A stretch of DNA of 63,975 nt, counting the filler, from Basidiobolus ranarum (taxonomy: Eukaryota): the NCBI GenBank assembly GCA_040143965.1. It is 3 parts of 3 records of this genome, joined end to end, with 100 filler letters (N's around TTAATTAATTAA, not from the genome) between each part and the next. Parts side by side here need not be neighbours in the genome. Positions count along the whole stretch, not along the records: positions 1 to 21,830 come from JASJQH010000196.1; 2 more parts are not named here. One strand, 5' to 3'. Positions 1 through 43,833 of the stretch are shown in pieces. Position numbers and translations under genes: made by a program. Positions within the stretch are counted from its first letter, which is position 1; each line of letters starts with the position of its first letter. Under the pieces are notes generated by a model, which made no database searches, had not been told where the DNA came from, and was given only the letters and a program-made list of their open reading frames with translations.

Positions 1-207
1 TACAAATCTAAGGGATACTACAAGACACCTCTTACCATTCCAGTACTTGCTGTAGTTGATACTGTTGTTGGTGCGCTCATTGCCTCAACTACGAAAGACT
101 ATGCCTCCAACATCACATTACAGACTTACCATGGTGGTCATTATATTTGGGAGGAGGTCCCAAAAGATACAACAAAGGGACTGGTCAGCTTCTTAAGTCA
201 TACATGA
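1..207 (+). CDS. 3' end of an alpha/beta-hydrolase (epoxide hydrolase/dehalogenase-like), truncated by window edge
   Basis: Frame 1 is open from base 1 to TGA at 205-207: ...LTIPVLAV...GGHYIWEEVPKDTTKGLVSFLSHT*. This fits the typical 'L.IPVL...GH...EE.P......FL' C-terminus containing the catalytic His. Confidence 0.7.
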   Translation, partial: YKSKGYYKTPLTIPVLAVVDTVVGALIASTTKDYASNITLQTYHGGHYIWEEVPKDTTKGLVSFLSHT

Positions 208-1969
208 ACATGTAATAATTATTATTTCTTGCTTCGAAACCATAACGTACAGTACAAAATATTGTATAGAATTTACTTTGAATATTAAGATAAATGCACC
301 TTTTATTCATTCGGGGCTTATTAAGTTTCAGATCACTCGCCAGTATTGTATTTATAGTTACCATTTATGGGAATATTGACGGACCAGAATTTGATGGCAG
401 GTGTGAGCAAATGGCGAACATGAAGTTCTTGAATTTTAATGGAAACCGCTCGAGAATATTTATACCAAAGCTTAGATCCATTTTAGTGATGTTTTCCGAT
501 ATAAAATAACTGATAAGCTTAGTTAATTGTTGTTTTTTACCTTGCTATCTTTAATACACATGCTAGTTCTTCTATCTGATGCTGCACCTCACTTGTCCAT
601 TTAGATAACTTCATTGCCTTGCAAAGTGTTGAACGGTTGAAATGTGGAAGCACTAAGATATTACGTTGATTACTTACTAACTTGATAACGGTCAAATACT
701 TTTCAGAACCTATGACAGTGATTGCTGGAGCTCGTAGGTCTTGCAAGGCGCTCCTAACTGCAGTACCTATTCGAAGTGAGATCCACCGTGAGACTCTCGG
801 GCTTGCTGATAATGCACTAAAGCAGGGAGAACTAGCTATGGAGTTTATACTATATGTCGGCTTAAACTAGAGTAGAGAAGCAGTTGAACGCTAACTCTAA
901 ATTTGTTCAGATTGAAGCACTGGATTATTAATCAAGAAACAATGTGAGATGGTATTAGTATATATGATGGCTACTATTGATAACTGTGGGGATCAGTGAA
1001 TTGAAATGGTCGAGCCCTATGCTGGGTATTCTTACGATGGGGTGGTCTACAAATTTTTCCCTTTTCTTCACACTTTGACTCACAGAACAGATCAATTATG
1101 TTTGGTCCAAGGCTTTCTCTGATAGGATCAAGGATTGAAGATTGATCAGATTCAGCTTGAAAAATGGATTGATATCATCTTTGGTATCCCATGAATATAG
1201 CACTAAATATGCAAAGATTATCGAGTTTTATTGTACTAATGACCATTTACACATGCGTTGCTCTTTCCAGGATCACCACCACTTTCATTTCTTTAACCAT
1301 CACTCAGAACGGAGCGGCAGTGGGAAGGCATTCAGTATGACTCTTCAACTACCCTATGCAAGTCATTACTACAAATAGAGTAGCATTTAGAATCTACGAG
1401 ATATATTGCATAAGACAGTTGCGAGTATAGAAGTGAGCATGACCTATAAGGCTATCGAGAATACGATATATATTACGTTTGTAGGTATTGTAACACAAAG
1501 TGTGACTACAAATACAGTTTCAATAGGTGTTAATTGTGCTAGGTATCTACGCCACTGCTTCATGACTTAGAATAATAGAACTCTCGTGGTACATATGGCT
1601 ATCATTACTTAATTAGTATACTTTAAGCCACCCAAAAATTGAGTAGGTACTGTTGTATCCTAGTACTCCAAACGCAATAGATTGACCAAAAATAACGTAG
1701 TAGTAGATTGTTGTATCTCAGTACACCAACATCAAGTTCGGATAAGATGATTCCTTTTAACATTCGTAGTAATATATATGTCAGGATTGTCAACCAGCTC
1801 ACTCAAGCTATTTGTTATACATGGATCCTTCTGAGAAAATCTTGATTTGCAATCTCTCAAGGAAAAAGTATAAATGTTAGTGATTTCAATGTTTAGAAAG
1901 AATAAGACGCACTTGAGCTCTATCTCTCAGGGACTAAATACTCGGTACCAATTACTCTTCTCAACTATC

Positions 1970-2701
1970 ATGTCCGTGGAATCTACCAAAGTGAAGTTCG
2001 CTTATGAACTGAACATGCAAGGCAGCGAATTTGAGACCTACGAAAAAGGTCAAACCGTCCGCTTCAATTATGGAGACCCATATAATGACAAGTTCCGCTC
2101 GGTAGTTGTCGGTGCTTCGGTCAGATTAAATATCTGGGAGCACAATGAATTTGACACTCCTGTCCCGGGCAAATATGATGAATTAGCTGCAGGCACTTAT
2201 AATGACTTGGACTATTTAAATGGGGTCTCCAAATTTCAGGTTATTGGTGCTGAGTTCCAATACGGTATCGATGTTAAATTGGTTGATCAATTAAACAAGC
2301 CTAAGGGTGCCTATGAATTTACCATCATTCCGTACCAGGTTGAAGCTGTCAAAACCAATTCTGGTGATGACTTCGTTCAAGTCCCAATCCCTAAATTAAC
2401 TCCGCCTGACTCGGAAATCGTAGTTCAGATTTCAGTTCGTGCAACTGAATGGCCCGGGGCTACTGTTGCAAACGGTTCCATTTATTTTAAATACAATCCA
2501 TCTACTGGAGTTCTTTCTTACAGAAAAACCGAAGGTTTCCCGACTAACATGAGTGTGACCCAAGGTAAGAATTTGATTATATTTATTGGATGCAGACCAT
2601 ACGATTTAGACCATAACTAACCTTATTTTATTATTATCTCGATTCTCCAAAAAGATGATAATACCTCCTTCATCTTTAGTTTGGACAGCGTTTCAAGCTA
2701 A
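1970..2701 (+). CDS. cadA-like: DdCAD-1/CadA-like calcium-dependent cell adhesion protein (beta/gamma-crystallin-like N-domain + Ig-like C-domain), 213 aa
   Basis: join(1970..2564,2655..2701); intron GTAAGA...CTAAC...AAAG. Product [10 protein letters not shown]...[14 protein letters not shown]...[15 protein letters not shown]...[13 protein letters not shown]...NGSIYFKY...[24 protein letters not shown]. It matches the Dictyostelium DdCAD-1 sequence end to end as I recall it. No signal peptide. Confidence 0.92.
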
Positions 2702-5659
2702 ACTGCTTTGCAAATGCCAAGTTATTGGACCCATTCTGATACCAGATTATTGATTAATACAGTATAATTGATCTCGGTTCAAATAAACTCTGCTTGGGAA
2801 TATTTACTATTTTACTTGAGTTTTGAGTCAATTTAGCTAGTATATTATTAAGATATAACAGTATCATTCTTGTTGTTTCTGTAACACTGATTACAAACAG
2901 ATATACCATTGTTCTAGTAAAATGTGTAGTAGGTATCAACATATTCGTTTTGTATTCTTAGATCTTTAGTGTGGACTGATTAGTTGATATTACGCGTCGA
3001 TATGTGAAGATAAAGAACCTTCAGTTTAATTGAAGTTCAGATCTCAAGCCCCGCGCAAGCAAGACGGAAAATGTTGGGAGGATTACTCATTTTGGTCTTA
3101 TATTACACTTTATCTTTATAACCGTCTTCAAAAGAAACAAGGTATCAACAAAAATAAGGTATCGGAACTGCTTACTATGTAAGATATATGATATGTGATT
3201 GGCTGTGCGGAAACAAATAAGATATAATAGAAGCAGCATATGTGTCTCTATATACCCCAAGCAAATACTCAGTTATAGTGTTGCCTTCTAAGCTACAGGC
3301 CCAAAATCCGGGCAATCAAATCATGATAATAATAGCACTCTGACCTTATCTATAAGCACTATCTCTTTTTTGTACTTTTTTGACCGATTGACCATTTCAA
3401 AATATTTAAAATCAAATAGGGATTTTAGATATTGTGAAATGGAAAGGTCAACCAAAACACTGGGTGAGCTACTTTCTATACTGCCAAATATAGAGAACAA
3501 ACAATTTATAGAGAACAAACAATTCCAAGATGTGCATGATCACTTCAACCTTACCAAACGCAAAAAGTGTGTGCTCCATCGATGCAGATGTCTACCTCCA
3601 AGTACATCAGGATGATTCATTCCAGATAGATGGTATTCCAGATAGGTAGAATTAGATGGAATTCTTTCTTCAACAAACAACCACACTGCTATTTCTTCTC
3701 TTCTTAGGATTAGGGCTGAGTGGTTCAATGACTTAGAGTTGGCATATGAATGAGTGGCGGGTTATTGCAATACATGTCTTCACTATGAATGTGACCCTTG
3801 GTAAATATTTTTCCAGTGGTTTCGAGGCTTATTCGTAGAAGAAAATTTCATTATCAAGATCGCCATTTCCAATTGGCTACCACCGTAAGGTTTCGAACGA
3901 TCACTGGTTACCAGGCACCAACTTGAAAAGCAATTTGGGATATTACATATACAGATTGATAACATAATACTTGCGCATCAAGCCACTTTTTATGATACGA
4001 GACCAACCTATCAAAGATATTATATGGTTATTTATCTAAACCTTACTATGCTGAACCAGCTCAAAATGGTACTCCTACCATTGCGATGGATTCTTCAGAT
4101 TGTAATAAGTATAAAATCTGTACTATTCCCATATGTATCCCAAACTCAGGTTCTGCTATTCCTGTCCCTGTTAATCATTGACTGAGTAATATCTCATGTG
4201 GTCCAATTCATCGTCGAAGCATCATTCTTCCGGCCCATCTCCAAGTAGCCCAACTGATTGTAAATCAGAAGATATTCCAGTATCAAAGAGAACCACACTC
4301 CCCAGTACTCGTTCCGATAAGTATGAAAGATCTCTCAATGAACTTGAAACATTCCTCGATGCGTCAAGCTTAAGTAAATGTACGTTGGAACAGAAGGTAG
4401 AATATGCTAAGATCGCCTTTCTTCTAGATCAAAGCTTGCTGGCATTCTTTAAAAATGATTCGACGTTGTAGTGGTTCAATACCTTCTTTACCCTACAACA
4501 AATTAGGATATTCCATGTAAAAAATACAACCACGATAGAATACAAATAGATTCCTTGCAATTCCGATGCCACTTGATGTGTATATAATGCTTAACGTAAC
4601 AAATATGAATGCTGAATAAATTACTTAATAGATTCCTAGTACTACTAGATGTACATGTAAAACCTTATTAACTTCTATTTTATCTTGAAAGCTATAGGCT
4701 TTCGCTGAAAAAAAGGCATAAACAAAAGTGCAGCAGTTTCTAGCCTTTGTGAATCCTGAAAGTAGATACAATATGTTCAGGATGAAACATTGTATTTCGC
4801 AATTCAGGTCATTTGGTATTAACATTTGTCACATATGAATGCTCCAGAATTATATCCACCTCGCTAACTCTTAGTGAAATGACTCAAGCATGATTAGGGT
4901 AAAATTCAGCTGTGCAGAAGCCATGCTAATTCTCATTATACCATTCTAATTAATAGAAGCCTGTACGATTATATATCGATGGAAGTACACCTTATTTTTG
5001 CCATTCGACATTTGCGTAGTACAGATAGATATTCTACACTGAATACACTAAACAGAGACTTAGCCAATGAGTAAGGTACTACTCAGGGTTAGGGTTAACA
5101 CTCTAGCAAGCCCTGTTGGAGATATATTTCTTCTCAAGTTGCTGAATAACTTGGAGTTGAGATATATCATGCTATAATAATCAATGTAAGTACTTGTAGA
5201 GCATATTCATGCGAGATAACACTCATGTTCTGAACAACTAAGATCAAATGGGTGCAATATATTGTGGTGTTACTGAACTCTGTTTTAACAAGGTAAAATA
5301 TAAATCTATGCCAAACTCTTCAACTCTTTCCTCTATTGAGAGTTTAGCAAATACTTTCTTCGATAGACGAATCAACCACCTAAACACTTCATTAGAATAC
5401 AAATCACTTTTATTTCTTCTTATCATCCCAGATACCTCGACATAGAGCATATTCCAAACAACTCTTCATTATGTTTTTAGTAAAGTTGACGTCTCTTACT
5501 TCTGCGCTAGTAGTCTAGGCATACCAGATTTCAATGGATTTCAACTAACATGTTACAAAGTCAATCTTTGACTGTGCTACTTGACTTTCATCTCGTTCTT
5601 AACTGTGATATGTCTAAGATAGAGCACTTACCTATTTTTGGGGTTCAGTGTAATTCAAA

Positions 5660-5990
5660 TGTTGAAATTAACACAGCCTAAGCATCTATATAGTCATTAG
5701 TAGCTTCGCATTTAGTTATTCCATATTTCATTACGATAGCACTCACTATTCTCAAGAGGAATTTACTTAGAAGTTTGAAGATATATAGATTTTTTCAAAC
5801 TCGTCGTAGCAGCCTCAGACTTTGCACACATATTTATGAGACCTTCCTTAACACATAGTATACGTTTGCTTGTTTACCTCTTGACAAGACTATAAATGTC
5901 AACTTTCCACTCGATTAATCAATAAGTGAAATCCACAAATTCTTCTAACCTTCCAAACCACTTCCAATAACTCCCAAAATCCTTTTGAGA
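5660..5990 (+). mobile_element. Solo LTR-like repeat, family A, diverged copy
   Basis: Starts TGTTGAAATTA and is colinear with the copies at 45188 and 56960; 3' terminus is degenerate, so the end is approximate. Confidence 0.75.
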
Positions 5991-6221
5991 TTTCAAATCT
6001 AAAATGGAAATAAATGCAATATGAGATAACGGGAATATATTTTACAAATTTGGGATGTTTATTTCATAATTATTGAACTTATATCAATGGCCTTGATATG
6101 GATAGCAACGTTAAGAAAAGTATTCAAAGATTCACTTCATAGTTGTTAGATGATGTGTAGAAAAATGAGACAAGTCTTTAATGTCGCAAAATATAATTGG
6201 GCAAGTTATTTAAAATAAACC

Positions 6222-7237
6222 CTATAATACATACTTCTCTACAAATTCTATGATGTGGCTTAAATGTTTGGACCAGGTGCTGTTTAATGGATCAGCGTTA
6301 ACAACTCCATCAAACCCATGCTCTTGTCCTTCCACCAAAATTAGGGAACACTCTACTCCCAATTGATCGAATTTCTCTTTTGCTCTGAGACTTTCTTCCA
6401 GTTTTACGGCAGTGTCGGAGGTACCGTGAAGAATAACGATGGGTGGAAAGTCTTTCTGTATGGCAAGTGAGGGAACCATTTTATCTACTCCAGGAGGCAA
6501 ATTATTTACATCAGAGACACCAAGCACATATTTGGCCCATAATCCATTCAAAACGAGGGCGTGGAATAAAAGTGCGCGACCAGTTATATTCACCCCAGTA
6601 ATTGGTAGGTCTGAAATCTCTGGACGACCTTCTTGTAGGTATTCCTTGACTTCGGCAATATCTAGCCATCCAATTCCTATGATTTCGTCATCAGGATGAG
6701 GTTGCGTATATGTAGGAGAAAGGGGCTCATACATTCCATAACAATTGATGACACAAGCTGGCTTGATACTAGCAGCGGCAGATACAATATAGGCGCAATA
6801 TCCTCCTGCACTTGACCCAGCAACAAACGACTTTTTAGGATCCACTTTTATTCCTGAAGAGACAAGCTCGGACTCTAATCCACCGCCAATTACCCAGTTC
6901 CACGCATCGGAAAGATCTGATAGTAGCTCCACTCCTTTGGTTTCTGGAGCAAGTCGATAATCAGCCGACACAAATAGCCATCCTCGAGATACACATGAAT
7001 CAATTAACCATGGAGGAAGGAATGACTTTCGATTACCTACAACCTATTAAAATGTTATATTCCATTAATGCATTTTAGGCCTTGGATAACCATTCTTACC
7101 ATGCCACCACCATGGAAATACAAACACACGGGACGATGCGACAACATGGAGGCTTCATTCGGTATGAACACATCTGCCTTGACTTTCAAAGAGTGTATTG
7201 TCTTAAAGACGTACGTATTGATGGAATAGGAAGTCAT
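6222..7237 (-). CDS. HSL-family (alpha/beta hydrolase_3) esterase/lipase, ~319 aa
   Basis: complement(join(6222..7043,7100..7237)); HGGG oxyanion motif at the end of exon 1, DYRLAPE, GSSAG nucleophile elbow, HGTSD, HGF. Confidence 0.9.
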
Positions 7238-7549
7238 AATTATCTTTGAACGAGCCGAAATCGAAATCATTTCATTTATATCCAATTCTGTTCGTACCAG
7301 CACAATCATTGGGGGCTAAGTTTGTTAGAAATCTTCTGTTACTCATACGTATAAGCTCCTACCACAAATATTATCGAAATATCAACAAGTTGCTTATAAA
7401 GCATCGCTGTATCGATGTGAAACTATTCTCAGTGATACTACTGTCTTTTGTACGCAATTAGCGTCACTAGTGTTGACCCCTCCTAACTTGAAACTATCAT
7501 GAAATAAATTAAAACCAAGGTTCTACATATATGGTTATCCTACAAAATA

Positions 7550-7633
7550 GTCGATTATTACTGACAAACGATAGGCTCTTTATTATCGAGTATTTAGTCT
7601 GTGAGCCTAAGCGCTTTGTCAGTAATAATCGAC
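7550..7633. repeat. 84-bp hairpin / inverted repeat
   Basis: GTCGATTATTACTGACAAA (7550-7568) pairs perfectly with TTTGTCAGTAATAATCGAC (7615-7633); the stem extends inward via TAGGCTC/GAGCCTA. Confidence 0.9.
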
Positions 7634-9602
7634 ACCACATTATGTTTGAGATTACACTAACCAATCCACCGAATTGGTGGACAAATTATGGAGTATGATA
7701 AGCTAGGTAATCAAAGCAACACAATGCTAGATTTGTATTGAATCGCGTGGTATTATTGTCTAGTTTAAGAACATACTTATATATTGTATCAATATTAGTA
7801 ATATCAATGGGAGTTAATCATGAAATGCCATTTAAAGAAGTTCCAAATGTTGCGCCACCACAATTCGAAACACGGTAGTGTGAGGACCTACACCACGACC
7901 TGCGTCATCCACCACCGTCAAAATAGTATGATCAAAATTAGGGAGAACTGTTTCAACTTTTCCATAAACTTTCCCATCATCGAATTTTGAAACTGTATCT
8001 TGAAATTGACTTTTTACTTTCCCATTATAAACTTTAGCCAGTTAGAAAACTACATCACCTTTAGTTACCAAGCAGCACACCAACATAGAAATAATGGGTC
8101 AAACAATTTTACAAGCTAAAGGCCATCCTCAGTCTGGAGCTCGCACTATCCTTTGTTTGTTACAGTCATTGACAACATTTGTCGGAGTGGAACATTCTTC
8201 TAAAAATAGTAATAGCGCGTGATTCTTGTCGTTTTTATGTGAGAGTGAACCTCGAAAAATAACAAACAAGGAATTTACCAATTCAGCAAAGCCCGAAATA
8301 ATGATCACATAAAGCGCTGATTAGTGAAATGAATCTATCACGTTGTTAATAGGAACATTCCGTTTATTGGCAAAAAGATTGGTACAAACCCCCTTAAAAC
8401 ATTTGGGTGGTGCACTTTTAGTATAGTAAAGCATAGGCCAGTAGGTGGACATGAATACATGGAACGATTTGGAATTTTCATCATTGACCGCTTGCTCTCG
8501 GTTTAGCATTAGTAGTCGAAAATTCGGAATAAAAACTACACTAAATGGGCTGGAAATAGCAGAGTGGCACCGTGGCTAGTGAGCAAAATGGCTAAATATG
8601 GCAGCGTGTTACTCAAAATGAGAGTCTACCACGTTATAGAGATATTTACACCTACAGGTTTTCTTAGTCAGTGAATTAGAGGACTTGATTTATTTGGCAT
8701 GGTATGATATATTTGGAACTAAATAAGTTAATTTCCTAACTTGTCTTTCCGTATATTATCCCGGACACCAAGGACAGCTTCAGTGCTAGGGTTAAATTAT
8801 AGGTTAATTTGCGCTGTTATGGTATGGGCCTAAAGAAATTCGATGAATGGGTACTAGTGGATGTTTGGTGAGTGGATACGTATATAGTATACATTTGCTT
8901 ATTTGGTGTACAAATGTTTTTGGTCTATGATTGAAATTCAACTGAGACGCTGGTTTGGTATCTAAAAGAGGGTGATTGCTTAATGTATACACCCGATTCC
9001 ATGCAAACATTAGAGTGCTACTGTTACTCAGACTTCGAAGTAATCCTACTGTTATTCAGACCTGGGAGTAGTTCTATGTATGAGATATATATATACGCTT
9101 TGTACATGATTTGCTCTTTAGTATCGGTATAGTATACCGTTCATTTGGTTGCTACGCGTCTATAAATCGCGTTTGTTCGGAATTTCCTCTTTTGCCTTGC
9201 AAATATAAGAGCCAATGGTTTTCACTGAAAAGAGATATATTTGTTAGTTATTTGCACCTTCTCGGAATACCACTAATTCTGGAAGAGTAAAAATGTTAAG
9301 CTAGTCAAATCAACAGGTCGAGATGAACGTTTACAGTATAGATAATCCTAGGCCTTTGTGAAACACAAACCCTTCAAGGATATGTCCATTAGTGATCCAG
9401 GTAATCATTATGTTAAATGGGAAACATTCTACACAGTCTGAAATGCTTCTCCATTCGTACAACCCTCTATATGGTTCTTACTAGAGTGGGAGCAATCAAA
9501 CTCCGACGGGTATCAAATTCAAGTATAAATATCTCGGTAATAATCTTAAGCTTTCAAAGTTAAATATACATCTCACAGTTCAAACTCAACAGAACAATAA
9601 TC

Positions 9603-11060
9603 ATGTTTGGTCGTTCTGAAAAAGAAGCTAAGGGGTCTACCGATTCACGAGAGGTTGGATTCACCGTCTATACTGTCCTATGTGTTTGCATTGCTTGCCT
9701 TGTATCCTTCAACAATGGTTGGAATACCTCTGACACCAATATTATTCAAGCTTCCATCACCGGTTGCGAAAATCCTCATGAGAAGGTTGACTGATTCCCT
9801 TGTTGCTTCCCTATGGATGACTGGTTGTTAGGTTTCGCTATCAGCAGTTTCTCTATTGGTGGTGCCATGGGTGGTCTTTCTGCTGGTTGGGCTCAAGCTA
9901 AATTCGGTCGTCGCAACTCCCTTCTTTTCAACAATCTCATCTTCATCATCGGTGCTTTACTTATCAGTTTGTCCAAGAACGAAGGTACATGGATTGTTGG
10001 TCGTTTCTTCACAGGTGTTGGCTCAGGCTTCGGAACTGTTGTTCTTCCTACCTATATTGGTGAAGTATCTACTACCAAAGTTCGTGGTGCTTACGGTGCT
10101 ATGACCCAGTTGACATGTGTTGTTGGTCAGTTGGTTACTCAGGCTGCTGGTCTTGGTCTCTCTTCTCGTGCTGGTTGGCGTGTGTGCTTGGGTCTTACCG
10201 GTGCCATTGCTATTCTCCAATTAGTTACCCTGATATTCATTACTGAAACTCCTCGTTACTTCATTTCCAAGGATCGTATTGAAGATGCCGAGAAATCTTT
10301 ACTTAAACTTCGTAAGGGTATGGATATTACCCAAGAACTTCAAACAATGATTGATGCTCGTGCTCAATCCAAGATTTCAGGAGAACAGTCTTCAATCATG
10401 GATGGTTTCAGATTCATCATGCAAGATCCCACCACTCGCAAGCATGCCTTCATTTGTATGTTCCTTTGTATTATCCAGCAGCTTTGCGGTATCAACGGTA
10501 TCATGTACTACTCAACCGCTATCTTCACTTCCATCTATGGTGGTCAAACTGCTCAGTATCTTACCGTCGGTGTCGGTGCTATCAATCTTCTTGCCACTCT
10601 TGTTACTATCGCTTTGATTGATCGTGTTGGAAGAAAGTTCCTTGTGCTTGTTAGTCTTGCTGGTATGGCTGCTTTCAATGTTCTCATGATCATTGGTATT
10701 CAGTGTGATGATTCTGGTCTGGTCATTCTTGGTCTATTCGCATTCGTTGTCGCCTTCGCTTTGGGTATGGGTCCCATTCCTTTTTTGTTGATTTCCGAGC
10801 TTATTCCTACCAGAGCTGTCTCTACTGTTGCATCTAGCGCTCTCGGTCTCAATTGGCTCGGTAACTTTGTTGTTGGTTTCTTCTTCCCATCATTGAAGAA
10901 CACCATGCAAGGTTATGTATTCTTGATCTTCGTCTGTTGCTGTATTGTTGGTTTCATTGGTGTTCTCTTCATCTTACCTGAAACCAAGGGACGTAGTATT
11001 AAAGATATTACTGGTCATGGTAAAGCACCCGATGCTGTTTGCACCATCAGATCCGAATGA
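9603..11060 (+). pseudogene. MFS sugar porter (GLUT-like) interrupted by a single in-frame TGA at 9792-9794
   Basis: ORFs 9603..9794 and 9813..11060 are in the same frame (…EKVD*FPCCFPMDDWLLG…). Motifs FGRR, ETPRY, QQLCGIN, DRVGRK, GPIP and PETKG are intact. No frame-preserving GT-AG intron spanning the stop was found. Confidence 0.8.
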
Positions 11061-13349: not shown

Positions 13350-16300
13350 TTAGTTTGTGCCTAGATCTTGTTGAACAACAAGTCCGTAATATTGTCCTCT
13401 CAGTGCCATTAGTTCATCGTGTGTGCCCTTCTCGTTAACAACACCGTTCTTGAATACATAGATTACATCAGCTCTTTGAATAGTCGATAGACGATGGGCC
13501 ACAGCAATAGTTGTACGTCCCTGAGAAGCATTATCTAAGGCAGTCTGGACCACCTTTTCGGAGGCTGCATCAAGTGCAGATGTTGCTTCATCGAGTAATA
13601 GAATTTTTGGTTGACGGATCAATGCACGAGCAATAGCAATACGTTGCTTCTGACCACCAGAAAGTTGAGATCCCTTACCACCAAGAGGAGTATTGTATCC
13701 TTGTGGAAGAGTCATAATGAAGTCATGGATGTTAGAATCACGGGCTGCTTTCTCGACCTCCGCATCAGAAGGAACACGATCCACAAGACCAAAGCAAATA
13801 TTTTCCTTAATTGACATATCATAAAGAGTAGGTTCTTGACCAACCAATGCAATATGCTTACGCATATCGTTGATGTTCATCTGTCGTACGTCTTTACCGT
13901 CGATCATGACACTACCAGAAAGGACATCATAGAAACGCTCGGTTAGACCAATGACGGTACTTTTACCACAACCTGAAGGTCCCACTAGTGCAGCAAATTG
14001 TCCAGGTTTGATATCAAGGTTTAAGCCACGAAGAACTGGAACACCGGGGCGAGTAGGGTAGCGGAAATGTACATCCTTATAGGTAATATGTCCTTCGACG
14101 GATTCTACTTTATCTCCTTCGGCGTTAACGACATCAATGATAGGTTTACGATCTAATAGAGTGATAATACTAGCTGCTGCATGCTTTGCTTTGCTGATAT
14201 CGGGAACGAATGAAAACACGTTACCAGCACTTTGAGAACCGAAAACAATAGCAATGAACACGGTGAAGAATTGAGTCTGGTCGTACTCTGTAGCACCACT
14301 AGAGATTCTGGTAGACAACAATCTTCCTCCATACCAAAATCCAAGTGCATTAACCAAGAAAACAATAGCTTGTGATAGAGCAAAGATGAATGAGGATCCG
14401 AATGCGTTCTGTTTACCGGCTCTAACAGGCTCTTCTAACTCATCATGATACATTTTACAAACATCTTTCTCTCGTGTAAGCGAAGCCACAGTACGAATAG
14501 ATGAAGCTGCTTCACAAGCAAGTTGTGCAGAATGTTCATAGGCAGCCTTGGTCTTGGCTTGATAACCATTCATCATTCTCATACGAATAACACCAGCACC
14601 AATTAAGAGAGGAACACAAGTCATGACTACAAGAGTAAGTTTCCAACCGTATGCCAAACCTACAATGAATCCACCAAGGATAGTAATAACTACTTGCAAA
14701 ATAGTACCAAATGTAGAGCCGCTGACTCCTTGTACGTGTGTGGCATCAGTAGAGAGAGCCGATACCAAAGCACCAGTATTATTGCTATCACGATCAAACC
14801 AGCCGATCTCTTGGTTAAGCATAGTAGCAAAGGTCTTGGAACGGATTCTCTCGGTTAGTCTTTCTCCGGAAATACCAAAGAAGGTACCTTGAGCAGTTTG
14901 AGCGATAAAGGAGACTATAGCAATAATCAAAAACATCAAAGCCCAGAAGTTGACTTCATGGGTACGTTTAGCGATATCCTGAATAGAAAGGGAACTGATC
15001 ACTCGGGCGAAAATAATGGCGAAAACAGGGTAAATGGCACCTGTGACAATGGCACCACATAACCCACCGAACATAAACTTCAATTCGGGTTTGTTAAGAG
15101 AGAAAACACGATAACAAAGATAAAGGAAGGAGAACTTAGTTTCTACTTCTCCCTCGATATCGTTTTTACTGCCAACTGAAAGGATGGAATGTTTGGTAGT
15201 TTGGCGTCTTAATTCGGAATCTACGGTTCTCATGGCAGCGACATTCTGGTCTTCAGGTGGTGGAATAGCTTCTAACTCGTCATCTTGGTTTCCAATCTTT
15301 TGAAGCTCAACTAATTTGAAGTAAGCACCCTTTTCCGCGAGTAAAGAGTTGTGAGTGCCGGATTCGATGATTTGACCACGCTCCATAACAACAATCTGAT
15401 CAGCATTACGAATTGTAGAAAGACGATGGGCAATAACGATGGTGGTTCTACCGGAACTAGCACGATCTAAAGCTTGTTGAACAATACCCTCAGATTGAGT
15501 ATCAAGGGCCGATGTAGCCTCGTCTAATAAAAGAATTCGGGGATCCTTAACGATAGCTCTAGCGATAGCAATACGTTGCTTTTGTCCACCTGAAAGGAGA
15601 AATCCTCTTTCACCAACATGCGTATTATACTTTTCAGGTAAGGTCATTATGAAATCATGAGCATTGGACATTTTACAAGCATTTTCGATTAGTTCCATTC
15701 TTTTCTCTAGACTGGCATTCTCGTAGGGGGTACCGATTAATCCGTGAGCGACATTTTCCGCGATTGTGCATTTGAACAAGGTAGGCTCTTGCGATACCAA
15801 ACCGATTTGACGTCTGAGCCAATGAACATTGAGTGATTTAATAGGACGACCATCAAGTAGGACTTCACCATCTAGTGGATCGTAAAATCTCTCCAATAAC
15901 TGAATAATAGTCGATTTTCCAGACCCACTTGTTCCAACCAAAGCCACAGTTTGGCCTGGTGCTACGGTTAAATTAATTCCCTTCAAGATAGGAACATCTG
16001 GACGGGAAGGATAAGTGAAATGAATATCACGAACTTCAATTAGACCTGCAATTGCTTCAGTGGGTTTAACGCCTTCTTCAGAAGAGGAGTCAATGGGAGG
16101 GACTCGATAAATGGCATCGTATAGTTTCGCTGCAGCACCCTGTGCAAACGAAAAGGCTTGAAGATTTGGAGCGACGTGACCAAGAGAAAAGGCACCAATA
16201 ATGACAGCGAAAAATACATTGAAAACATCACCAACGTTCAATTCGTGATCAGTCAACAATTTACCTCCATACCAAAAGGCAAGAGAATAAGCAGAATAAA

Positions 16301-17317
16301 TGATAAGGAATATTACACCGATACCTGCACCAGTGGTAAATGCCTTTTTCATTCCCTCCGTTTTGGCCTTTGAAATGTTGACGTTGTACATTTCTGAAAG
16401 TTTCTTTTGCTGTCCAAAGGCAGTGGCAGTTCGGATAGAGGAGATGACTTCTTCAGCTAACGTACCAGATATGGAATAGTGGTCAAGCGCTCTTTTGACA
16501 AACTTGCTAGTGAACTTGTTCAAAGAACCAACAGAAATGGCAATCATTGGGATAATGCAGGAAAGCACCAAGGTAAGTTTCCAATTTCTGATGAAGGCAA
16601 TAATGAAGGCGGAGATAAAAGTAGCAACATAGGAGCAACTTTGAGGAAATTTCTCGGAAATACCGTCTTGAATCAAGTGAGTATCGCTAGTAATTCTGGT
16701 AGTGACCTCACCAGCACCTAATTTATCAAACCAAGCAATATCCTGACGAAGTACAGCAGCCAAATAGGCCTCTCGAATCTTTCTCGTTTGACGTTCACCA
16801 GCATATACCCAGGTAGACATGTAAGCGTAAGTGGTTACTAAAATACCGATAGCGAGGTAGACGTAGTAAAGGGTGTATTTATTAATTTCGGATCTGAAAC
16901 TGGAAATCATATCGTCAGTTAATCCATTTGGCACACTGGCTTGCCGACTGAAAGATGAAAACATAGTGGTCATTTGACCAAAGATAACACTAAAGTAATA
17001 GAAAGAATTTAGGTTAGAGAGTTATAACGACAGAAAATGATATATTTGAATACTAACGTCATTAAGGGCATACCAGCACCAGCTATAATGGCAGCAAAAA
17101 GGCCAATAGACATCAAAACCCAGTCATAGGTGGTTGCAAAGTTGAATAATTCGATCATACTTGCTTTTGGTTCAACATCTTTCTTTTCGTCTTTGGCAGG
17201 CTCGCTGATATTGATTGTGTTTTCGGCTGCTACCTTCTTCTTCTCGTCCATGACAGCGTCATTTTGTATTGTGGATTCGCTTTGGATACTATCCTGTTTT
17301 TCAGGAATCGAGCTCAT
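13350..17317 (-). CDS. Full-size ABCB1/MDR1 (P-glycoprotein-type) transporter, ~1299 aa
   Basis: complement(join(13350..16989,17058..17317)); TMD-NBD-TMD-NBD; Walker A GTSGSGKS and GPSGCGKS, two LSGGQ signatures, two LLDEATSALD. Confidence 0.96.
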
Positions 17318-21830: not shown

Positions 21831-21930
21831 NNNNNNNNNNNNNNNNNNNNNNNNNNNNNNNNNNNNNNNNNNNNTTAATTAATTAANNNNNNNNNNNNNN
21901 NNNNNNNNNNNNNNNNNNNNNNNNNNNNNN
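21831..21930. other. Assembly gap with synthetic linker
   Basis: N-run containing TTAATTAATTAA (stops in all six frames); same layout as the gap at 43734. Confidence 0.97.
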
Positions 21931-22208
21931 ATGTGTTTTTTCATTGAAATAAGCAATAGTGAAGTTGAATTAATTTGTGGACGTATATGTGACACAGCAT
22001 TAATCAGTTTTCCTGCATTACAAACTTTTCTAAACTAAAGATGAGAATATATAAACCCTTCCTAGTTCTAACCGAACAGATTACTAAAATATCCATTCTG
22101 TGGCAACGCAAGGACCATTTTAATCCCTTCCTTTCCCTCTCCTTTGGTTTTGGAGTCAATTGACGTTTTGAGTCTTTGTGAGACCTCAACGTTTGCAGTT
22201 CACTTAAA

Positions 22209-24617
22209 ATGAGTAACTATCGCCACCAAACTGACGCGGACCATCCCTTAGCTTACGAGTATGAGAACCGCTCAGAGGACCCATTCAAAGATCCCCCAAG
22301 CAGTCAGCATTTGGAAGATCTTTATAATGCAAATATAGCTCCTCCCCAAGGCTCTCGAAGATATCGGCAATATATGGATGATCGTCGTAAAAGTCTTCGA
22401 CATATAGAACTGATTTCTGGTAACTTGGTCATTGAATGTCCAATTGCAGATAAGATCTTAGAGAAAGCACCCAACAGGGGTGAGGAGTTTGAAACGATGA
22501 GATATACCGCGGCTACTTGCGATCCAAACGAATTTTTACAAAACAGGTATACCTTACGTTCGGCGATATACGGCCGTACCACCGAGCTTTTCATTGTGAT
22601 GACGATGTATAATGAAGATGAGCAGCTTTTTGTCAAAACTCTTACTGGTGTAATTAAGAATATTCGTCACCTTTGCAATCGTTCTAAATCTAAAGTTTGG
22701 GGTAACGAAGGGTGGAAGAAATGCGTAGTATGTGTTGTTGCCGATGGTCGCACCAAGGTTCATCCACGAGTCCTCAAAGTCTTGGGAGCTATGGGTGTTT
22801 ATCAGGACGGAATAGCACAAAGCTCTGTCAATGGAAAGGGTGTGACTGCACATATCTACGAATATACCTCTCAGTTATACCTCGATAGTGACATGAAGGT
22901 GCATTCAATCGCCGAGCAGGATTTTGTACCTATACAGGTGGTTTTCTGTTTGAAGGAGAAGAACGCGAAGAAGCTGAATTCGCATCGTTGGTTCTTTAAC
23001 GCATTTGCTCCCCTTCTCAACCCTAACGTATGCATCTTGTTAGATGTGGGTACTCGCCCCAGTGGCACTTCAATATATCACCTATGGAAGGCCTTCGACA
23101 GAAATCCAAATGTAGGTGGCGCATGTGGTGAGATCTGTGTCGAATTAGGCTCTGGTTGTTCTAACCTCTGGAATCCGTTGGTTGCTGCTCAGAATTTTGA
23201 ATACAAAATGAGTAATATCTTGGATAAGCCTTTGGAAAGTGTTTTTGGATATATCAGTGTTCTTCCTGGTGCTTTTTCAGCCTACCGTTATGCTGCCTTG
23301 AAGAATTCCTCTCCTGGAGTTGGTCCTCTTGCTTCTTACTTTAAGGGTGAGACTTTGCATGGTGCAGATGCTACTGGTGGTATTTTTGAAGCGAACATGT
23401 ACCTTGCTGAGGATCGTATTCTTTGTTTCGAGTTGTGTGCCAAGAAAAACTGCAAATGGGTGCTTAAATATGTGAAGTCTGCTAAGGCAGAGACAGATGT
23501 ACCTGACAATTGGCCCGAGTTTATCTCTCAAAGACGTCGTTGGTTAAACGGTTCCCTATTTGCCGCTTTCTTTGCTACCGCCCATTGGTTCCAGATTTGG
23601 AGAACAAAGCACAGCCTTTATCGGAAAGGGTTGTTTATGATTCAGTTTTTTTACAATGTCATCAATTTGTTCTTCTCCTGGTTTGCTCTTGGCAATTTCT
23701 ATCTTACTTTCTACTTCATGGGTCAAGAGAATTCCGGAAATGATAATCAACCAGATCCTTTCTTCAACAAGTCGAAGTATGTGTACGTGATTGTGCGAGA
23801 GGTTTTCTTGTTGGGTATTATTGTGCAATTCGTACTGTCGCTTGGAAATCGTCCACAGGGTTCGAAGATCATTTACATTCTCTGCGTATATATATTTGCC
23901 TTTGTGATGGCTATCATGCTCTATACTATTGGATTTAATCTGACCGTCTACTTCAGTGACCCTGACGTCTACAACAATCTGTTAAAGCAACCATTTACCA
24001 AGGAAACCGTCAACATCTTCATTGCTGTGGCCTCTACTTACGGCTTGTACTTCCTATCGTCATTCCTTTACTTTGAGCCATGGCACATGTTCACCTCCTT
24101 TGTGCAGTATATGTTCATCTTCCCCTCGTACGTTTGTATTCTTATGGTCTATGCCTTCTGTAATACGCATGATGTATCTTGGGGTACTAAAGGAGATAAC
24201 AATGCCTCAGCGAATCTTGGAAATGTCACATCACTCACGAATAAGCAAGGTATCGAAGTAGCGGCAGTAGAAGTGCCTACTGAGAAACAAGATGTCAATT
24301 CATTATATGCGGAATTATTATCCGACCTTCAAGTCAAACCAGAGCCAGAAAAGGAAAAAACCGATGCTGCTACGAAGCGAGAAGATTACTACCGTTTATT
24401 CCGTACACGTACAGTGCTTACATGGATGTTTAGTAATGTAGTATTAATTCTTGCATTCCAGTCGGATATCGTCAATGGTTGGATCAAAAGTATTGCTGGT
24501 GGTTATGTTAGTTCAAGGCCATACTTAGATTTTATTTTTTGGTCTATGGCGGGTATGTCTGCCTTTAAATTCTTAGGTTGTATTACGTATTTATATTTGA
24601 GAATAATGTTCGGTTAA
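22209..24617 (+). CDS. Chitin synthase, division 1 (class I/II-like), 802 aa, intronless
   Basis: [63 protein letters not shown]; short N-terminus. Confidence 0.96.
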
Positions 24618-31548: not shown

Positions 31549-34500
31549 ATGTCACGTATACCAACATGGTATACCATCTCTCCGTCCTCTGATCCGGTCG
31601 TTGAATTCTTCCATGCGATAAACCAAGACGATGTAGATAAAGTCAGTGATCTACTTAACCAGCAGCAGTTTGATCTAAATTATATCCGAGACGAGGATGG
31701 TCGTGCTCCTCTAATGGTGGCTGCCATCCGGAATCGAACCCAAGTGTTGGAATTTCTTGCCAACTGTACCCAAGTTGATCTGGAATTGAGAGGTTTGTAT
31801 TCTTTTCATGACAGCGAAGATTCCATTTTGGATGTTTGCAAAGCAACTTTCTTATCCTCTTCTTTCTTTACGTTTCTATTTCCAAGAAAGATAATGAAGG
31901 AAACACGGCTCTGTACAAAGGATGTGCCACAGGCGCTACAGGTGCCGTAGAATGTTTGCTTAGAGCTGGAGCCAATGTCGATGCCGAGAATAGGGTAAGA
32001 CTGTCGTAGAATTGGTATGTCTTATAAGTGAAGCTAATCCAATGATTTTAGGAGCAAAGCACTCCATTGATTATTGCCGCTTACAACGGCCATTCCTCAC
32101 TTTGTAGCTTTCTAGTAGGTTTTGGTCACGCAAATATCAACCACCGGGATGTTACACATAAGACTGCTTTAAGCTTTGCTAGCTTCGAAGGACACGATGA
32201 AACTGTAGAAGCATTACTGGAAAGAGGTGCTGAAGTGGATTGTGTAGACAAGGTCTTTATTAGTCACAATTTCGTACTGATTAGGATGACATCTAACTAT
32301 TTACTGATTTCCAGTTCGGTTGGTCCGCTCTAATGTTGGCTGCACACGCTGGAAAAGCTTCTGTTGTACAGAAACTTGTAGATTACGGTGCGGATACCAC
32401 TCTTGTAACAGATAATGGTAAAACGGCGGAAGATTTGGCTAGAGAGGCTGGTCGCTTAGCTATAGTACAGATTTTGTCTGAATGTATTGTGCCGAATATC
32501 GCCAGTAAGAGGCCTACAATCCCTACTCCGATACCTTTCAGCGTTCGTCCAAAGTCCCGGATTCTGTCGAGGGAGCATGGTAGCTCGACACTCTCCCCCT
32601 TCTCAAGCGTACTCAGTGAAAATCGATCTACGGTTGTAGGCTCACCTAATTCTTCTGCAACTCTAACTGATCGCCTAACCCCACAACAAAACGAATTGTC
32701 AATCGATTACCTCAAATCACACAACTATCGTTCTTTCTCACAGAAACCAATCTCACCCGAGTATAATGTAGCTAACGAAAGACCAGTGACCACATCTATG
32801 ATGAAACCTATCAAACCCTTGGGTGAGTTTTCTTGGGATCAAAGTCAATGGGAAGATCTTTCCAATGAGAAATCTGACTGGAACATCAAGTCACCAATCC
32901 CTATCAAATTGCACCGACGACAATCACATTCTTCGTTCGAGAATCAGCGACCATTAATAGAACCTGAAATCCGTCGACGACGACCACCACAAGCACATGT
33001 ATCAAACAATATCTCTACAGCTGGTGGTCAAGATAACTCCACAGACTCTCGAAGATTGTGGGAAATAGCTTCCAAACTTCTAACCTGCTGTTGTCTTAAC
33101 CACTGTCTGATAGATTGTGGCAAGTTAACCGATCCTGATGTTCGACAAGCATGGAGAGAAAAAGTCTCTCTTTGTATCATAATATTTCTGATCTCTTCTT
33201 TCCTTGGTTTTTTAACTTTCACTTTCTCCACTGTGGTTTGTCGTCAAGGTCCACCCATTTTTGCTGAAGATGTAGCACATAAATATGGATTTGAAGGTAA
33301 AGGAATGCAACTGATGGTCGTTCGTGGTAGACTGTATAATGTAAAGGATTATTTTCGGTTCGGATATCACCGACCGATACTTCCTTTCGCAGATGAAGAT
33401 CTTGCCTCAGTTGTTAATCCCCTGTTGGGCCAGGATATTAGTGAATTTTTTCCGATTGATAAATTCTCTTCTAAATGTCGAAAGTGGCCCTTAAGACCGA
33501 GTTGTGCTTTTGAAGGAAGTGATAAGCGTTATCACTGTCATAGCAGTCCAATATCTCGAAAGACTTTAGAATCTTTGAGTATTCATAATTTTGTCGCTTT
33601 CTCTTGGGAATCGATACAAGAAAAAGAGAGGAAATTATTTGTTTACAATGATAAGGTTTTTTCCCTCGATCTTTATTTATACAATAATGAGACGTATCTG
33701 GGAGATTCTCACTTTACTTCGAAATTGTTGAAACTCATAGGAAGAGATGCCACTAGAGATATAATAAGGGATCGTACCTTGAAAGCGGTTTTACCCTGCT
33801 TTGAAGATCAACTCTTGGTTGGGATGGTGGAGGGTTCTAGTACCGGTTGCTTCGCTTCAAACTTGTTGATAGTTGTATCAAGTGTTATTTTAGTGGGTAT
33901 CATCCTGATCAAATTTGTTTCTGCTGTAGCATTCGACTGGTTTTTATCAAGACAACTGGGGAAAATCACCAAAAAATCGCATCCGTCGGATCCTATAAAG
34001 CCCATCATACTTCTCGTTACTTGTTACTCCGAAGGGGAACACTCCATACGAACGACTTTGGACTCGTTGGCTCTGACGAGTTATGATGATGAATACAAAT
34101 TACTCTTTGTTATATGTGATGGAGATATTGTGGGCGCTGGAAACGAGAAATCTACACCCAACATTGTACTCGACATTATAGAGCCATTTGACTCAGCTGC
34201 ATCTATTCCCGAGCCTGCCTCATATATTGCGGTGGGAGATGGCGCGAAGCAGCACAACATGGCCCAAGTTTATATTGGATTTTACCGATGTCAAGGTCAC
34301 CGTGTACCAATATTAGTGGTGGTAAAATGCGGCACGCCCAACGAAAAAGACACCTCCAAAGCTGGTAATCGCGGTAAGAGAGATTCTCAGCTGATATTGA
34401 TGCAGTGGCTTAGCAAAATATGTCTAAATGAGAAGATGACTCCGCTTGAATATGAATTGTTTGAGAAAGTCCGAATTTTGATGAACTTTACCCCTGATCA

Positions 34501-36374
34501 ATTCGAAATGGTTCTAATGGTAGATGCTGACACTCTGGTGGAGGAGGAAAGTGTGAGCCGGATGGTGGCTGCTATGGAACGTGATTCTAACGTGATGGGT
34601 CTTTGTGGAGAAACCAAGGTAGCAAACAAGAAGCAAACATGGGTGACTATGATTCAGGTATTTTGCATGTTTTGTTCCAGACTTTGATGGATTCTAAAGG
34701 AGAAAATGCCGTTTATAGGTTTACGAATACTACATATCCCATCACCTCGGTAAAGCCTTCGAATCAATATTTGGAGGTGTTACTTGTTTGCCGGGATGCT
34801 TTTGCATGTATCGGATCAAAGCACCCAAGTGCAACGATTATTCAGTTCCCGTACTAGCCAATCCAGAGATAGTTGAACTCTACTCCTCCAATGATGTCTC
34901 AACTCTCCACCAGAAGAACCTGCTTTTGCTGGGAGAGGATCGATATCTGACCACATTGATGCTGCGTACTTTTCCCAAACGCAAAATGATCTATGTACCA
35001 AAAGCCATTTGTAGAACTGTAGTTCCTGATGAGTTTCGAGTGTTGCTAAGCCAACGTCGTCGCTGGATCAATTCTACAGTTCACAATCTACTCGAACTTA
35101 TTTTGGTTCCACAATTGTGCGGGATCTTCTGTTGCTCAATGCAATTTGTGATTCTCTTGGAGCTTCTAGGAACTGTTATAATGCCGGCATCTTTTGTATT
35201 CTTCCTTTTTTTGATCTTGGCCGCGTTTACGGGAGCTGATGTCTGGTTGCCTCTGATATTTATGTGCATCGTTTTCTTTCTACAGACGCTTTTAATTGCT
35301 ATTACCACCCGAAAGATGGGCTACGTGCTTTGGATGTTTGTTTTCATCTTAGCAATGCCCATCTGGAATTTCGCACTTCCAATCTATGCTTTCTGGCATT
35401 TCGATGACTTTTCTTGGGGGACTACGAGGAAAATTGACGGTTTAGATAGTGGCCACGGAGGTGAAAGAGATTTTGAACAATTTGATCCGAGTGTCATTCC
35501 AACCAAGCATTGGCACGAGTGGAGTGCTGAGAACCGTGATTCCACCAGTGAAGATGACGAAAACCCAGCTAGACCTGACTCTGAGGCGGAGTATTTCAAG
35601 CGTAACATATACAATATACCTCATCAGAATAGAGATCTTGGTGTAATCAATGAGGATGAAATCGTTGAGGATGTGGTGGTTGATCCGACGAACCATTACA
35701 ACAGATATGCCCTGGAATCTACTCTTCGATACCCCACGACTAACATGAATAAACTCCCCAGTCTAAGAGGCTCTAAAAAATACATGTCACAGAGAAAACA
35801 CTTCAGTGAAGGAAGTTACATTTCTGAACAGGGTAAAGCCCGTCGTTACAGTCGACTTTGTGGCCCTCGTCCATATCAAGATTATCATCGTGGAGTTCCC
35901 TACTCTTTTATTTCACCGGCTACCTCACAGGCCAACTACCCTGCGGAACTATATCACTCTCGACAGTCTCATTACTCAAGGCCCATCTCTGCATCACCAT
36001 TTCCTTATCAATTTCACAACCAAGTACGGCAAACAATTACTCCAGGTGAGTACATCCCACGCATGCAGGCTGCACGGTCCCTCGCTATGGAACCTACTTA
36101 TTCGTTCCCCTCTTATAAATATCCTCCTTTTCCACATGCACAGTATCAGAACTCACGATACTCCACACCACTCGGTCGTCCTATAACCTCCAACGGTCGC
36201 CTGTACAGTCAGACACCTTCTTGGAGTGTGCCATACCAATATTACTCCTCACCTCTTTCGAGTAGAACCTCTCTAGCAACCACCGCAATCCCTTTACACC
36301 GGACATCAGTTGAATCAAGACCTCAGGCAAGACTCAATGGTCCCCGAGGGTACACAGTTTTGCAACCATTCTGA
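31549..36374 (+). CDS. Ankyrin-repeat / chitin synthase (division 2, class IV-like) fusion protein, ~1515 aa
   Basis: join(31549..31792,31891..31994,32052..32252,32315..34657,34719..36374); all introns GT-AG and frame-preserving. Ankyrin repeats: GRAPLMVAA, GNTALYKG, STPLIIAAYNGH, KTALSFASFEGH, GWSALMLAAHAG, GKTAEDLA. Then AWREKV, a cyt-b5-like region, VTCYSEG, GNRGKRDSQ, MVDADT, LGEDRYLT, QRRRW, DDFSWG. Confidence 0.92.
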
Positions 36375-43733: not shown

Positions 43734-43833
43734 NNNNNNNNNNNNNNNNNNNNNNNNNNNNNNNNNNNNNNNNNNNNTTAATTAATTAANNNNNNNNNNN
43801 NNNNNNNNNNNNNNNNNNNNNNNNNNNNNNNNN
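43734..43833. other. Assembly gap with synthetic linker
   Basis: N-run containing TTAATTAATTAA; it interrupts PRP5. Confidence 0.97.

Follow-up and report, generated by a model that had tools for sequence, protein, structure and literature searches.

We report here that the fungus Basidiobolus ranarum carries, at positions 1970–2701 of a 63,975-nucleotide stretch of assembly GCA_040143965.1 (the whole stretch is hereafter called the window), an intact gene encoding a true, near full-length member of the DdCAD-1 (CadA) family of social amoebae; the gene and its product are referred to below as the CAD gene and the CAD protein. The gene is best read as having passed horizontally, long ago, between a dictyostelid-like amoebozoan and the lineage of Basidiobolus, a reading to which we assign a probability of roughly 0.65. 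It was drawn from the great rarity of the family together with the lack of other labelled fungi or animals in the match lists, from the position of the fungal protein within the divergence seen among dictyostelid paralogues, and from the host-like base composition and codon usage of the gene, its intron, and the near-identical fragments in other Basidiobolus records. The host-like composition, the spliceosomal intron and the presence in at least two Basidiobolus lineages would make the transfer an old one, and the amoeba-to-fungus direction is preferred, as dictyostelids have the family universally and in several copies.

The features of the gene are summarized in Table 1. In-script translation of the joined exons gave 213 residues followed by a single terminal stop. 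Exon 2 was found to encode the C-terminal DNTSFIF, the same stretch being present at the C-termini of the Dictyostelium discoideum proteins P0058 and P0004 and of D. purpureum P0002, and to contribute the last-strand Phe that is conserved in at least 90% of the 37 aligned family members, while the unspliced frame ran into unrelated residues and a stop at 2620. The predicted 2564/2655 splice, which rests on this homology, restores the conserved C-terminus of the family. A longer open reading frame (ORF) starting from an upstream in-frame ATG at 1874 (248 aa unspliced) was also considered and rejected, as neither its N-terminal extension nor its unspliced tail occurred in any homologue; this ATG overlaps the TATAAA element, and the homologues begin at the MSV... 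position. An earlier note on this DNA, made from the sequence by eye, had described an intact two-exon gene for 213 residues with a canonical intron and branch point, no signal peptide and no cysteines, and this description was borne out, a branch-point-like AACTAAC being indeed present.

Table 1. Features of the CAD gene and its immediate surroundings in the window.
Feature	Position	Strand	Description	Basis
Complete two-exon gene	1970–2701	+		Direct reading of sequence
Exon 1	1970–2564	+	ATG at 1970; 198 codons and the first base of codon 199	
Intron	2565–2654	+	90 nt, GTAAG...AG, GC content 0.278, phase 1, before the last 14 codons	
Putative branch point	2615–2621	+	Branch-point-like AACTAAC, 34 nt 5' of the intron AG	
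Exon 2	2655–2701	+	Finishes the split codon; 14 full codons; stop TAA (2699–2701)	
Candidate TATA box	1869–1874	+	TATAAA, ~100 nt 5' of the start codon; putative promoter element	Pattern search
Candidate polyadenylation signal	2782–2787	+	AATAAA, 81 nt past the stop	
N-terminal beta/gamma-crystallin-type domain	1982–2245	+	Residues 5–92; NDKFxS motif at residues 39–44	Pfam PF08964
C-terminal Ig-like Membrane_bind domain	2267–2563	+	Residues 100–198; last strand completed by exon 2	Pfam PF14564

Membership of the CAD protein in the DdCAD-1 family was evident from sequence, domain content and predicted fold alike. The product of exon 1 (P0001, 198 aa) matched DdCAD-1 (PDB 1yhp_A) with a phmmer E value of 3e-72, query residues 2–198 being aligned with residues 1–198 of the chain. 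The Pfam domain Crystall_3 was detected at 82.6 bits (cut-off 27.3) and was directly followed by Membrane_bind at 121.2 bits (cut-off 25). An AlphaFold2 model built from a 37-sequence alignment reached a mean predicted local distance difference test score (pLDDT) of 94.5 and a predicted template-modelling (TM) score (pTM) of 0.87, and in Foldseek it matched 1yhp with an E value of 6.1e-20, a TMq of 0.90 and a root-mean-square deviation (rmsd) of 2.1 over 199 columns. Over exon 1 (198 residues), D. discoideum P0058, here regarded as CadA, was 59% identical and its paralogue Cad2 (DDB_G0285817, P0004) 60% identical, and these values became 60% and 62%, respectively, upon inclusion of the spliced C-terminus. 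N39, D40 and S44 of the NDKFxS motif were nearly invariant in the 37 family members, and G169 was invariant in all 37, its flanks being as in most eukaryotic sequences. With a maximum Kyte–Doolittle 15-residue mean of −0.21 over the first 30 positions, the N-terminus was not hydrophobic, and the highest 15-residue hydropathy anywhere in the protein (0.95) left no transmembrane-like segment; the CAD protein thus has the build of the family, that is, a soluble protein of ~210 aa without a signal peptide or transmembrane segment. The near full-length match to DdCAD-1 and the long shared runs given in the earlier note are accordingly both real, since the phmmer match to 1yhp extends over the full length.

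In comparison with CadA (PDB 1yhp, 2b1o) and Cad2, the fungal protein has the same length of 213 aa, the same domain order and likewise no signal peptide, and it shares with them 60–62% of its residues over the full length, the NDKFxS motif, the C-terminal strand and, for the predicted fold, a superposition at TM 0.90. It differs from both in containing no cysteines, where CadA and Cad2 each have five, in one additional residue in the first loop, in a changed second crystallin-motif region, and in its host, which is a walled fungus. With the cad3-type proteins that occur throughout Dictyostelia (e.g. Heterostelium album cad3, Cavenderia fasciculata cad1 and D. purpureum 57459), the architecture and membership in a clade supported at 100/100 are held in common, and the C-terminal domain is 59–65% identical to those of the named proteins, whereas the N-terminal domain is only 35–51% identical.

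The family was shown to be very rare. A HMMER pass over 1,835,955,588 cluster representatives at a threshold of E ≤ 1e-3 recovered 41 clusters, with 21 at E ≤ 1e-10 and 6 at E ≤ 1e-30. One word-indexed search returned 17 matches (9 dictyostelid, 1 from B. ranarum and 7 without an organism label), and the same kind of search with a 19-sequence profile returned 44, comprising 10 dictyostelid, 12 bacterial and 1 Basidiobolus match together with 21 lacking a label. The bacteria were Nonomuraea, Actinomadura, Streptomyces, Serratia, Vibrio, Nostoc (two), Xenorhabdus (two), Enterobacter and the Pseudomonas syringae group (two). Identity to the fungal CAD protein ranged from 48 to 62% for the labelled dictyostelids and from 24 to 31% for the labelled bacteria, and neither an animal nor a fungus other than Basidiobolus occurred among the labelled matches (23 of the 44 and 10 of the 17). 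The taxonomic distribution was therefore patchy and at odds with species relationships, the 41 clusters and the labelled matches pointing to dictyostelids, bacteria and Basidiobolus only, with 21 of the 44 matches bearing no label. As for Basidiobolus itself, a 109-aa B. ranarum entry named "hypothetical protein, partial" (P0007) was 94% identical to the CAD protein and a 71-aa fragment (P0021) was 92% identical, and the public protein set seems to hold the Basidiobolus gene only in the form of these fragments.

To place the CAD protein within the family, three trees were built: a quick one of 43 sequences, with all matches of at least 150 aa except three multi-domain proteins and with P0019 trimmed to 220 residues; a careful one of 39 sequences, which left out fragments shorter than 150 aa, the very long P0029, P0035, P0047 and P0056, and several distant sequences; and one of 27 sequences, made without P0023, P0020, P0024, P0025 and 8 of the 15 outgroup sequences. 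The 43- and 39-sequence trees both split a eukaryotic CAD clade from the bacterial sequences and those resembling the Abundant Perithecial Protein (APP) of Neurospora crassa, and the branch between the bacterial-type sequences and the eukaryotic clade measured ~1.0–1.1 substitutions per site in the 39- and 27-sequence trees (100/100). Support for the eukaryotic clade, the Basidiobolus protein included, was 100/100 with 39 sequences and 100/99 with 27, and a pan-dictyostelid cad3-type clade that does not contain the Basidiobolus protein was recovered at 97/100 and 99/100, respectively. Every tree-placed representative match of at least 43% identity fell inside the eukaryotic clade, P0021 with its 71 aa being too short for the tree. 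By its sequence, the Basidiobolus protein is hence robustly placed as a member of the eukaryotic CAD clade that is not of the cad3 type. In the 39-sequence tree it paired with the long-branch P0023 (96/81) and stood between the cad1/2-type proteins of D. discoideum, D. firmibasis and D. purpureum and the cad3 clade, the maximum-likelihood split that nests it among dictyostelid-type sequences being supported at 81/97.

The Basidiobolus protein was 60–62% identical to CadA, Cad2 and D. purpureum 46027, and these in turn were 46–56% identical to the amoebal cad3-type paralogues. Along the tree, the path from the Basidiobolus protein to CadA/Cad2 was 0.70–0.84, compared with 0.93–1.39 from CadA/Cad2 to the cad3-type paralogues of the same amoebae; for CadA taken singly, the path was 0.70–0.76 from the Basidiobolus protein and 0.93 from the D. 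purpureum cad3-type protein. Judged from these sequence comparisons, the fungal protein is no farther from CadA and Cad2 than they are from their own cad3-type paralogues. When the two halves were compared separately, the N-terminal half was 57–65% identical to cad1/2-type and 35–51% to cad3-type proteins, and the C-terminal half was 56–65% identical to the named proteins of both types.

Several observations nevertheless weigh against the transfer reading. When the 22 dictyostelid-type sequences were forced together with Basidiobolus outside, the log-likelihood fell by 6.55 and the approximately unbiased (AU) test did not reject the arrangement (p 0.185). The base of the 27-sequence tree, from which long branches had been taken out, was a polytomy of the Basidiobolus protein, D. 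purpureum 46027, CadA, Cad2 with its D. firmibasis counterpart, and the cad3 clade, and both results make a sister-group status of the fungal protein, whether by vertical descent or by a fungus-to-amoeba transfer, compatible with the tree. No B. meristosporus-labelled homologue appeared among the 17 and 44 matches of the two word-indexed searches, and a full-length Basidiobolus CAD protein was not found in a set of 5.8 billion proteins, which yielded the two fragments only. The chitin synthases diagnostic of Basidiobolus sit across an artificial spacer from the CAD gene; the 21.8-kb piece that bears the gene joins it only to genes for an alpha/beta-hydrolase, a major facilitator superfamily (MFS) sugar transporter and an ABCB transporter, none of the three being lineage-diagnostic. 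As to the protein itself, the second crystallin-motif region is altered, so that its Ca2+ stoichiometry may differ from that of CadA, and the 4–6 cysteines of the named dictyostelid-type proteins are all missing. The host is moreover walled and is not known to have a contractile vacuole, the export route of CadA.

The AU result and the basal polytomy can be taken to favour vertical inheritance, in which a CAD gene of the common ancestor of fungi and Amoebozoa would have been retained only in Dictyostelia and Basidiobolus and would have evolved unusually slowly in the fungus. The same explanation gains from the outgroup-like states that the fungal protein keeps at several sites occupied by Cys in dictyostelids, one instance being an S-V that is also present in the bacterial sequences. 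However, it would need losses in essentially all other opisthokont and amoebozoan lineages, the labelled matches and the 41 clusters among 1.84 billion representatives offer no other fungus or animal, and the greater nearness of the fungal protein to CadA and Cad2 than that of their cad3-type paralogues is unexpected if the split between fungus and amoeba is the older one. We regard vertical inheritance as unlikely. Horizontal transfer followed by domestication, as the earlier note had proposed, thus held up as the most economical account in terms of rarity, of the 60–62% against 46–56% identities and of host-like composition, with a nesting of the fungal protein and a direction of transfer that are tentative in view of the AU test and the polytomy.

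Concerning direction, the CadA/Cad2-type gene of group-4 Dictyostelium could conversely have come from a Basidiobolus-like fungus. Among the labelled sequences, the cad1/2 type occurs only in D. discoideum, D. firmibasis and D. purpureum, and the cad3 type is found in Cavenderia, Heterostelium, Acytostelium, Polysphondylium violaceum and D. purpureum; the N-terminal domain of the fungal protein sides with the cad1/2 type in the identities given above, and the 27-sequence tree does not polarise the event. Against this stands the observation that, with the bacterial outgroup, the cad1/2-type sequences form a basal grade of the clade and no late addition to it, and also that all dictyostelids have the family, in multiple copies, and that it is known here from a single fungal genus. 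A transfer from fungus to amoeba was accordingly judged rather improbable.

A further alternative is that dictyostelids and Basidiobolus each acquired the gene from closely related, unsampled bacteria. The two-domain architecture is indeed scattered in bacteria, including Haliangium, Photobacterium and Halomonas, and the APP-like P0046 (E 6.8e-75 to PDB 5z6d) grouped in the bacterial-type clade of the 39-sequence tree with a Streptomyces protein (98/93), which makes bacterium-to-fungus movement plausible within the superfamily. Basidiobolus has, furthermore, been reported to carry many bacterial genes. The nearest bacterial-type relative to the eukaryotic clade by tree path, among those compared, was P0028, which, when one genome of each prokaryotic species was scanned, proved 91% identical to locus L001 3001–3684 of a metagenome-assembled genome of an uncultured Haliangium sp., Haliangium being a social myxobacterium; relatives from Photobacterium and Halomonas were 39–45% identical to P0028. 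Yet even this protein was only 35–36% identical to the fungal CAD protein, the labelled bacterial relatives all lay at 24–31%, and the long branch described above, with full support, isolates the bacterial-type sequences from a eukaryotic clade that holds every tree-placed match of at least 43% identity. These values led us to consider separate acquisitions very improbable, and the close bacterial donor shared by amoeba and fungus, which had been suggested as a possible route of transfer, found no counterpart among these bacteria. It was also observed that the C-terminal strand of P0028 is similar to that of the CAD proteins. The ESM Atlas, queried with the CAD protein, gave one bacterial-type cluster only (score 0.91), and a metagenome scan for further fungal-type copies or for the source of P0023 gave one locus at 34% identity, which was uninformative.

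The remaining alternative, that the 21.8-kb piece derives from a co-sequenced amoebozoan through contamination or mis-binning, was evaluated from the make-up of the window. The window consists of three pieces (1–21830, 21931–43733 and 43834–63975, with 21830, 21803 and 20142 bases), between which lie two identical 100-bp artificial spacers, N44-TTAATTAATTAA-N44, at 21831–21930 and 43734–43833. Owing to these spacers, the chitin synthases and the CAD gene are not on one uninterrupted sequence: the spacer at 21831–21930 parts them, and piece 1 holds no fungus-specific gene. These two points speak for contamination. The GC content of the window was 0.36–0.42, and among its products are a PHD protein, a helicase, an MFS sugar transporter and pairs of ABCB transporters and chitin synthases. 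Of the latter, the one encoded by the ORF at 22182–24617 (+) was 90% identical to chitin synthase 1 of B. meristosporus CBS 931.73, its next matches being Basidiobolus paralogues (66–71%) and then zoopagomycete and mucoromycete early-diverging fungi. Taken with the 94% identity of the B. ranarum fragment P0007, this match assigns the window to a Basidiobolus distinct from both of those records. The description of the surrounding sequence as clearly fungal was therefore upheld by this chitin synthase, but not for piece 1 itself, as the chitin synthases lie on another piece.

Several lines of evidence tie piece 1 to the others nonetheless. Its tetranucleotide profile correlated with those of pieces 2 and 3 at r 0.94 and 0.97, and positions 1–6000 considered separately gave r 0.91–0.96 with the other pieces. 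The coding sequence of the CAD gene had a GC content of 0.422 and a GC content at third codon positions (GC3) of 0.425, compared with 0.42–0.45 and 0.32–0.43, respectively, in nine host ORFs, and its codon usage correlated with that of the host genes at 0.52, same-size chunks of host genes giving a mean of 0.60 (sd 0.14) with 31% of them below the CAD gene. Base composition and codon usage of the CAD gene are thus host-like. In addition, the 94%-identical fragment comes from an independently labelled B. ranarum assembly, the ABCB transporters of pieces 1 and 3 are paralogues with 61% identity, and no sampled dictyostelid exceeds 62% identity. Contamination was hence considered extremely unlikely, and horizontal transfer was retained as the preferred account of the gene.

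With regard to function, CadA was reported (PMC6656538) to agglutinate K. pneumoniae in a manner abolished by ethylene glycol tetraacetic acid (EGTA), restored by Ca2+ and inhibited by galactose, and the same paper lists Cad2 and Cad3 among secreted proteins. For DdCAD-1, which has no signal peptide, PMC2138044 proposes a nonclassical route to the surface, and the title of that paper names contractile vacuoles. In the fungal protein, NDKFxS is conserved as in CadA and the second crystallin-motif region differs. By analogy with CadA, we infer that the fungal CAD protein is a Ca2+-dependent glycan-binding lectin/adhesin, which would bind Ca2+ via the crystallin domain and would recognize galactose-type glycans, and which, once bound, would agglutinate bacteria or hold cell surfaces together. 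For this, the protein would either be exported independently of a signal peptide or stay in the cytoplasm as a defence lectin that is set free upon damage, leaderless defence lectins being a known feature of fungi.

In the most far-reaching version of the transfer reading, which appears doubtful to us, the founding adhesion/lectin gene of social-amoeba multicellularity moved between Dictyostelium-like amoebae and Basidiobolus and now serves as a fungal Ca2+-dependent lectin. Basidiobolus is an amphibian-gut fungus with adhesive spores, and such a lectin would clump or fence off gut or dung bacteria, or would glue the spores. In the boldest form of this version, the fungus would be the donor, and CadA and Cad2 of group-4 Dictyostelium would be of fungal origin.

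CadA is the textbook molecule of aggregative multicellularity and has lately also been viewed as an innate-immunity-like lectin of amoebae. If the transfer is true, it would be one of a small number of well-documented cases in which a cell-adhesion/lectin gene has passed from one eukaryotic supergroup lineage to another, the two having soil and dung as a common habitat. It would also provide a natural experiment on how a leaderless adhesin fares in a walled cell that lacks contractile vacuoles, on whether the five cysteines of CadA are dispensable, and on whether bacterial agglutination is the ancestral job of the family. The far-reaching version, if true, would mean a barrier-immunity or adhesion module common to kingdoms.

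Fungi already have one described member of the superfamily, namely the APP of N. crassa (DUF1881; PDB 5z6d, 5z6e), which is likewise of leaderless length and has the crystallin plus Ig-like layout. The CAD protein matched APP (5z6d) both in sequence (E 2.1e-12) and in fold (Foldseek E 7.8e-13), but identity was 27% and the whole-chain superposition was poor (TMq 0.48, rmsd 10.7), which in the predicted model indicates a domain arrangement different from that of the CAD protein. Together with the position of P0046 in the bacterial-type clade, which marks APP as a separate superfamily lineage, no close relationship of the Basidiobolus protein to the APP/DUF1881 subfamily was found. The CAD protein accordingly adds a new member to a known family, from a host in which none was expected, the fungal superfamily member described before being of a different lineage. 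The proposal of an undescribed fungal system therefore holds insofar as the lineage is new in fungi, and has to be restricted insofar as APP, 27% identical and of another subclade, has already been solved. Among the titles listed by full-text literature searches, which covered neither subscription journals nor supplementary tables, none pointed to a CAD homologue in fungi. The bacterial proteins that combine PF08964 and PF14564 (from Haliangium, Photobacterium, Streptomyces, Nonomuraea, Xenorhabdus, Vibrio and others) are alike in architecture and length, and some of them (P0038, P0039) have signal peptides, in contrast to the fungal protein.

Three relatives of the CAD protein showed individual features. 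In P0023 (206 aa), the only protein to pair with the Basidiobolus protein in the tree, the C-terminal domain was 51% identical to that of the Basidiobolus protein and the N-terminal domain 21%; the latter lacked the NDKF motif and was missed by Pfam Crystall_3, and the protein contained one cysteine. P0023 may represent a second fungal-type paralogue. P0019 (1169 aa) carries a CAD module (Crystall_3 and Membrane_bind) 46% identical to the Basidiobolus protein, fused to TIG, EGF and ComC supersandwich domains and followed by an apparent hydrophobic membrane anchor at the C-terminus; it was sister to Cavenderia fasciculata cad1 (100/96) and, by its sequence, looks like a membrane-tethered adhesin form. 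In P0013 (Heterostelium album cad3), a Tyr/Phe/Asn-rich insertion of 20 residues separates the N and D of NDKF (alignment columns 77–96). This insertion looks like an intron left in the gene model, which would suggest that dictyostelid cad genes are interrupted by an intron at a position that is uninterrupted in the fungal gene.

The surroundings of the CAD gene had been described as a gene-sparse, repeat-rich flank. The first attribute was confirmed, as no ORF with a Pfam match was present in 1–1969 or 2702–6221 and ten small ORFs of the flanks and of the end of piece 1 had no Pfam matches; the second was not, since direct or inverted repeat families of at least 25 nt were absent from 1–9000. 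The sole tandem repeat in 1–9800 was an exact 18-nt unit present twice at 3489–3524. A tblastn search with 43 family members detected no second CAD copy within the 64-kb window, all other matches having E values of at least 0.05, and the neighbouring sugar transporter retrieved generic eukaryotic clusters without a lineage signal from the ESM Atlas.

Among the other genes, the helicase ORF at 42451–43785 (−) enters the second spacer and is thus cut at the end of its piece. The ABCB-type transporters at 13350–17021 (−) and 50179–53811 (+), on pieces 1 and 3, have the order TMD-NBD-TMD-NBD (TMD, transmembrane domain; NBD, nucleotide-binding domain), and both are single ORFs of more than 1200 aa with hardly any introns. 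Both chitin synthases are on piece 2: that at 22182–24617 is of the Chitin_synth_1N/Chitin_synth_1 type, and the second, at 32297–36374 (+), contains ankyrin repeats together with a CHS4-like domain and Chitin_synth_2 and is interrupted near 34667–34718 by a short intron of ~52 nt.

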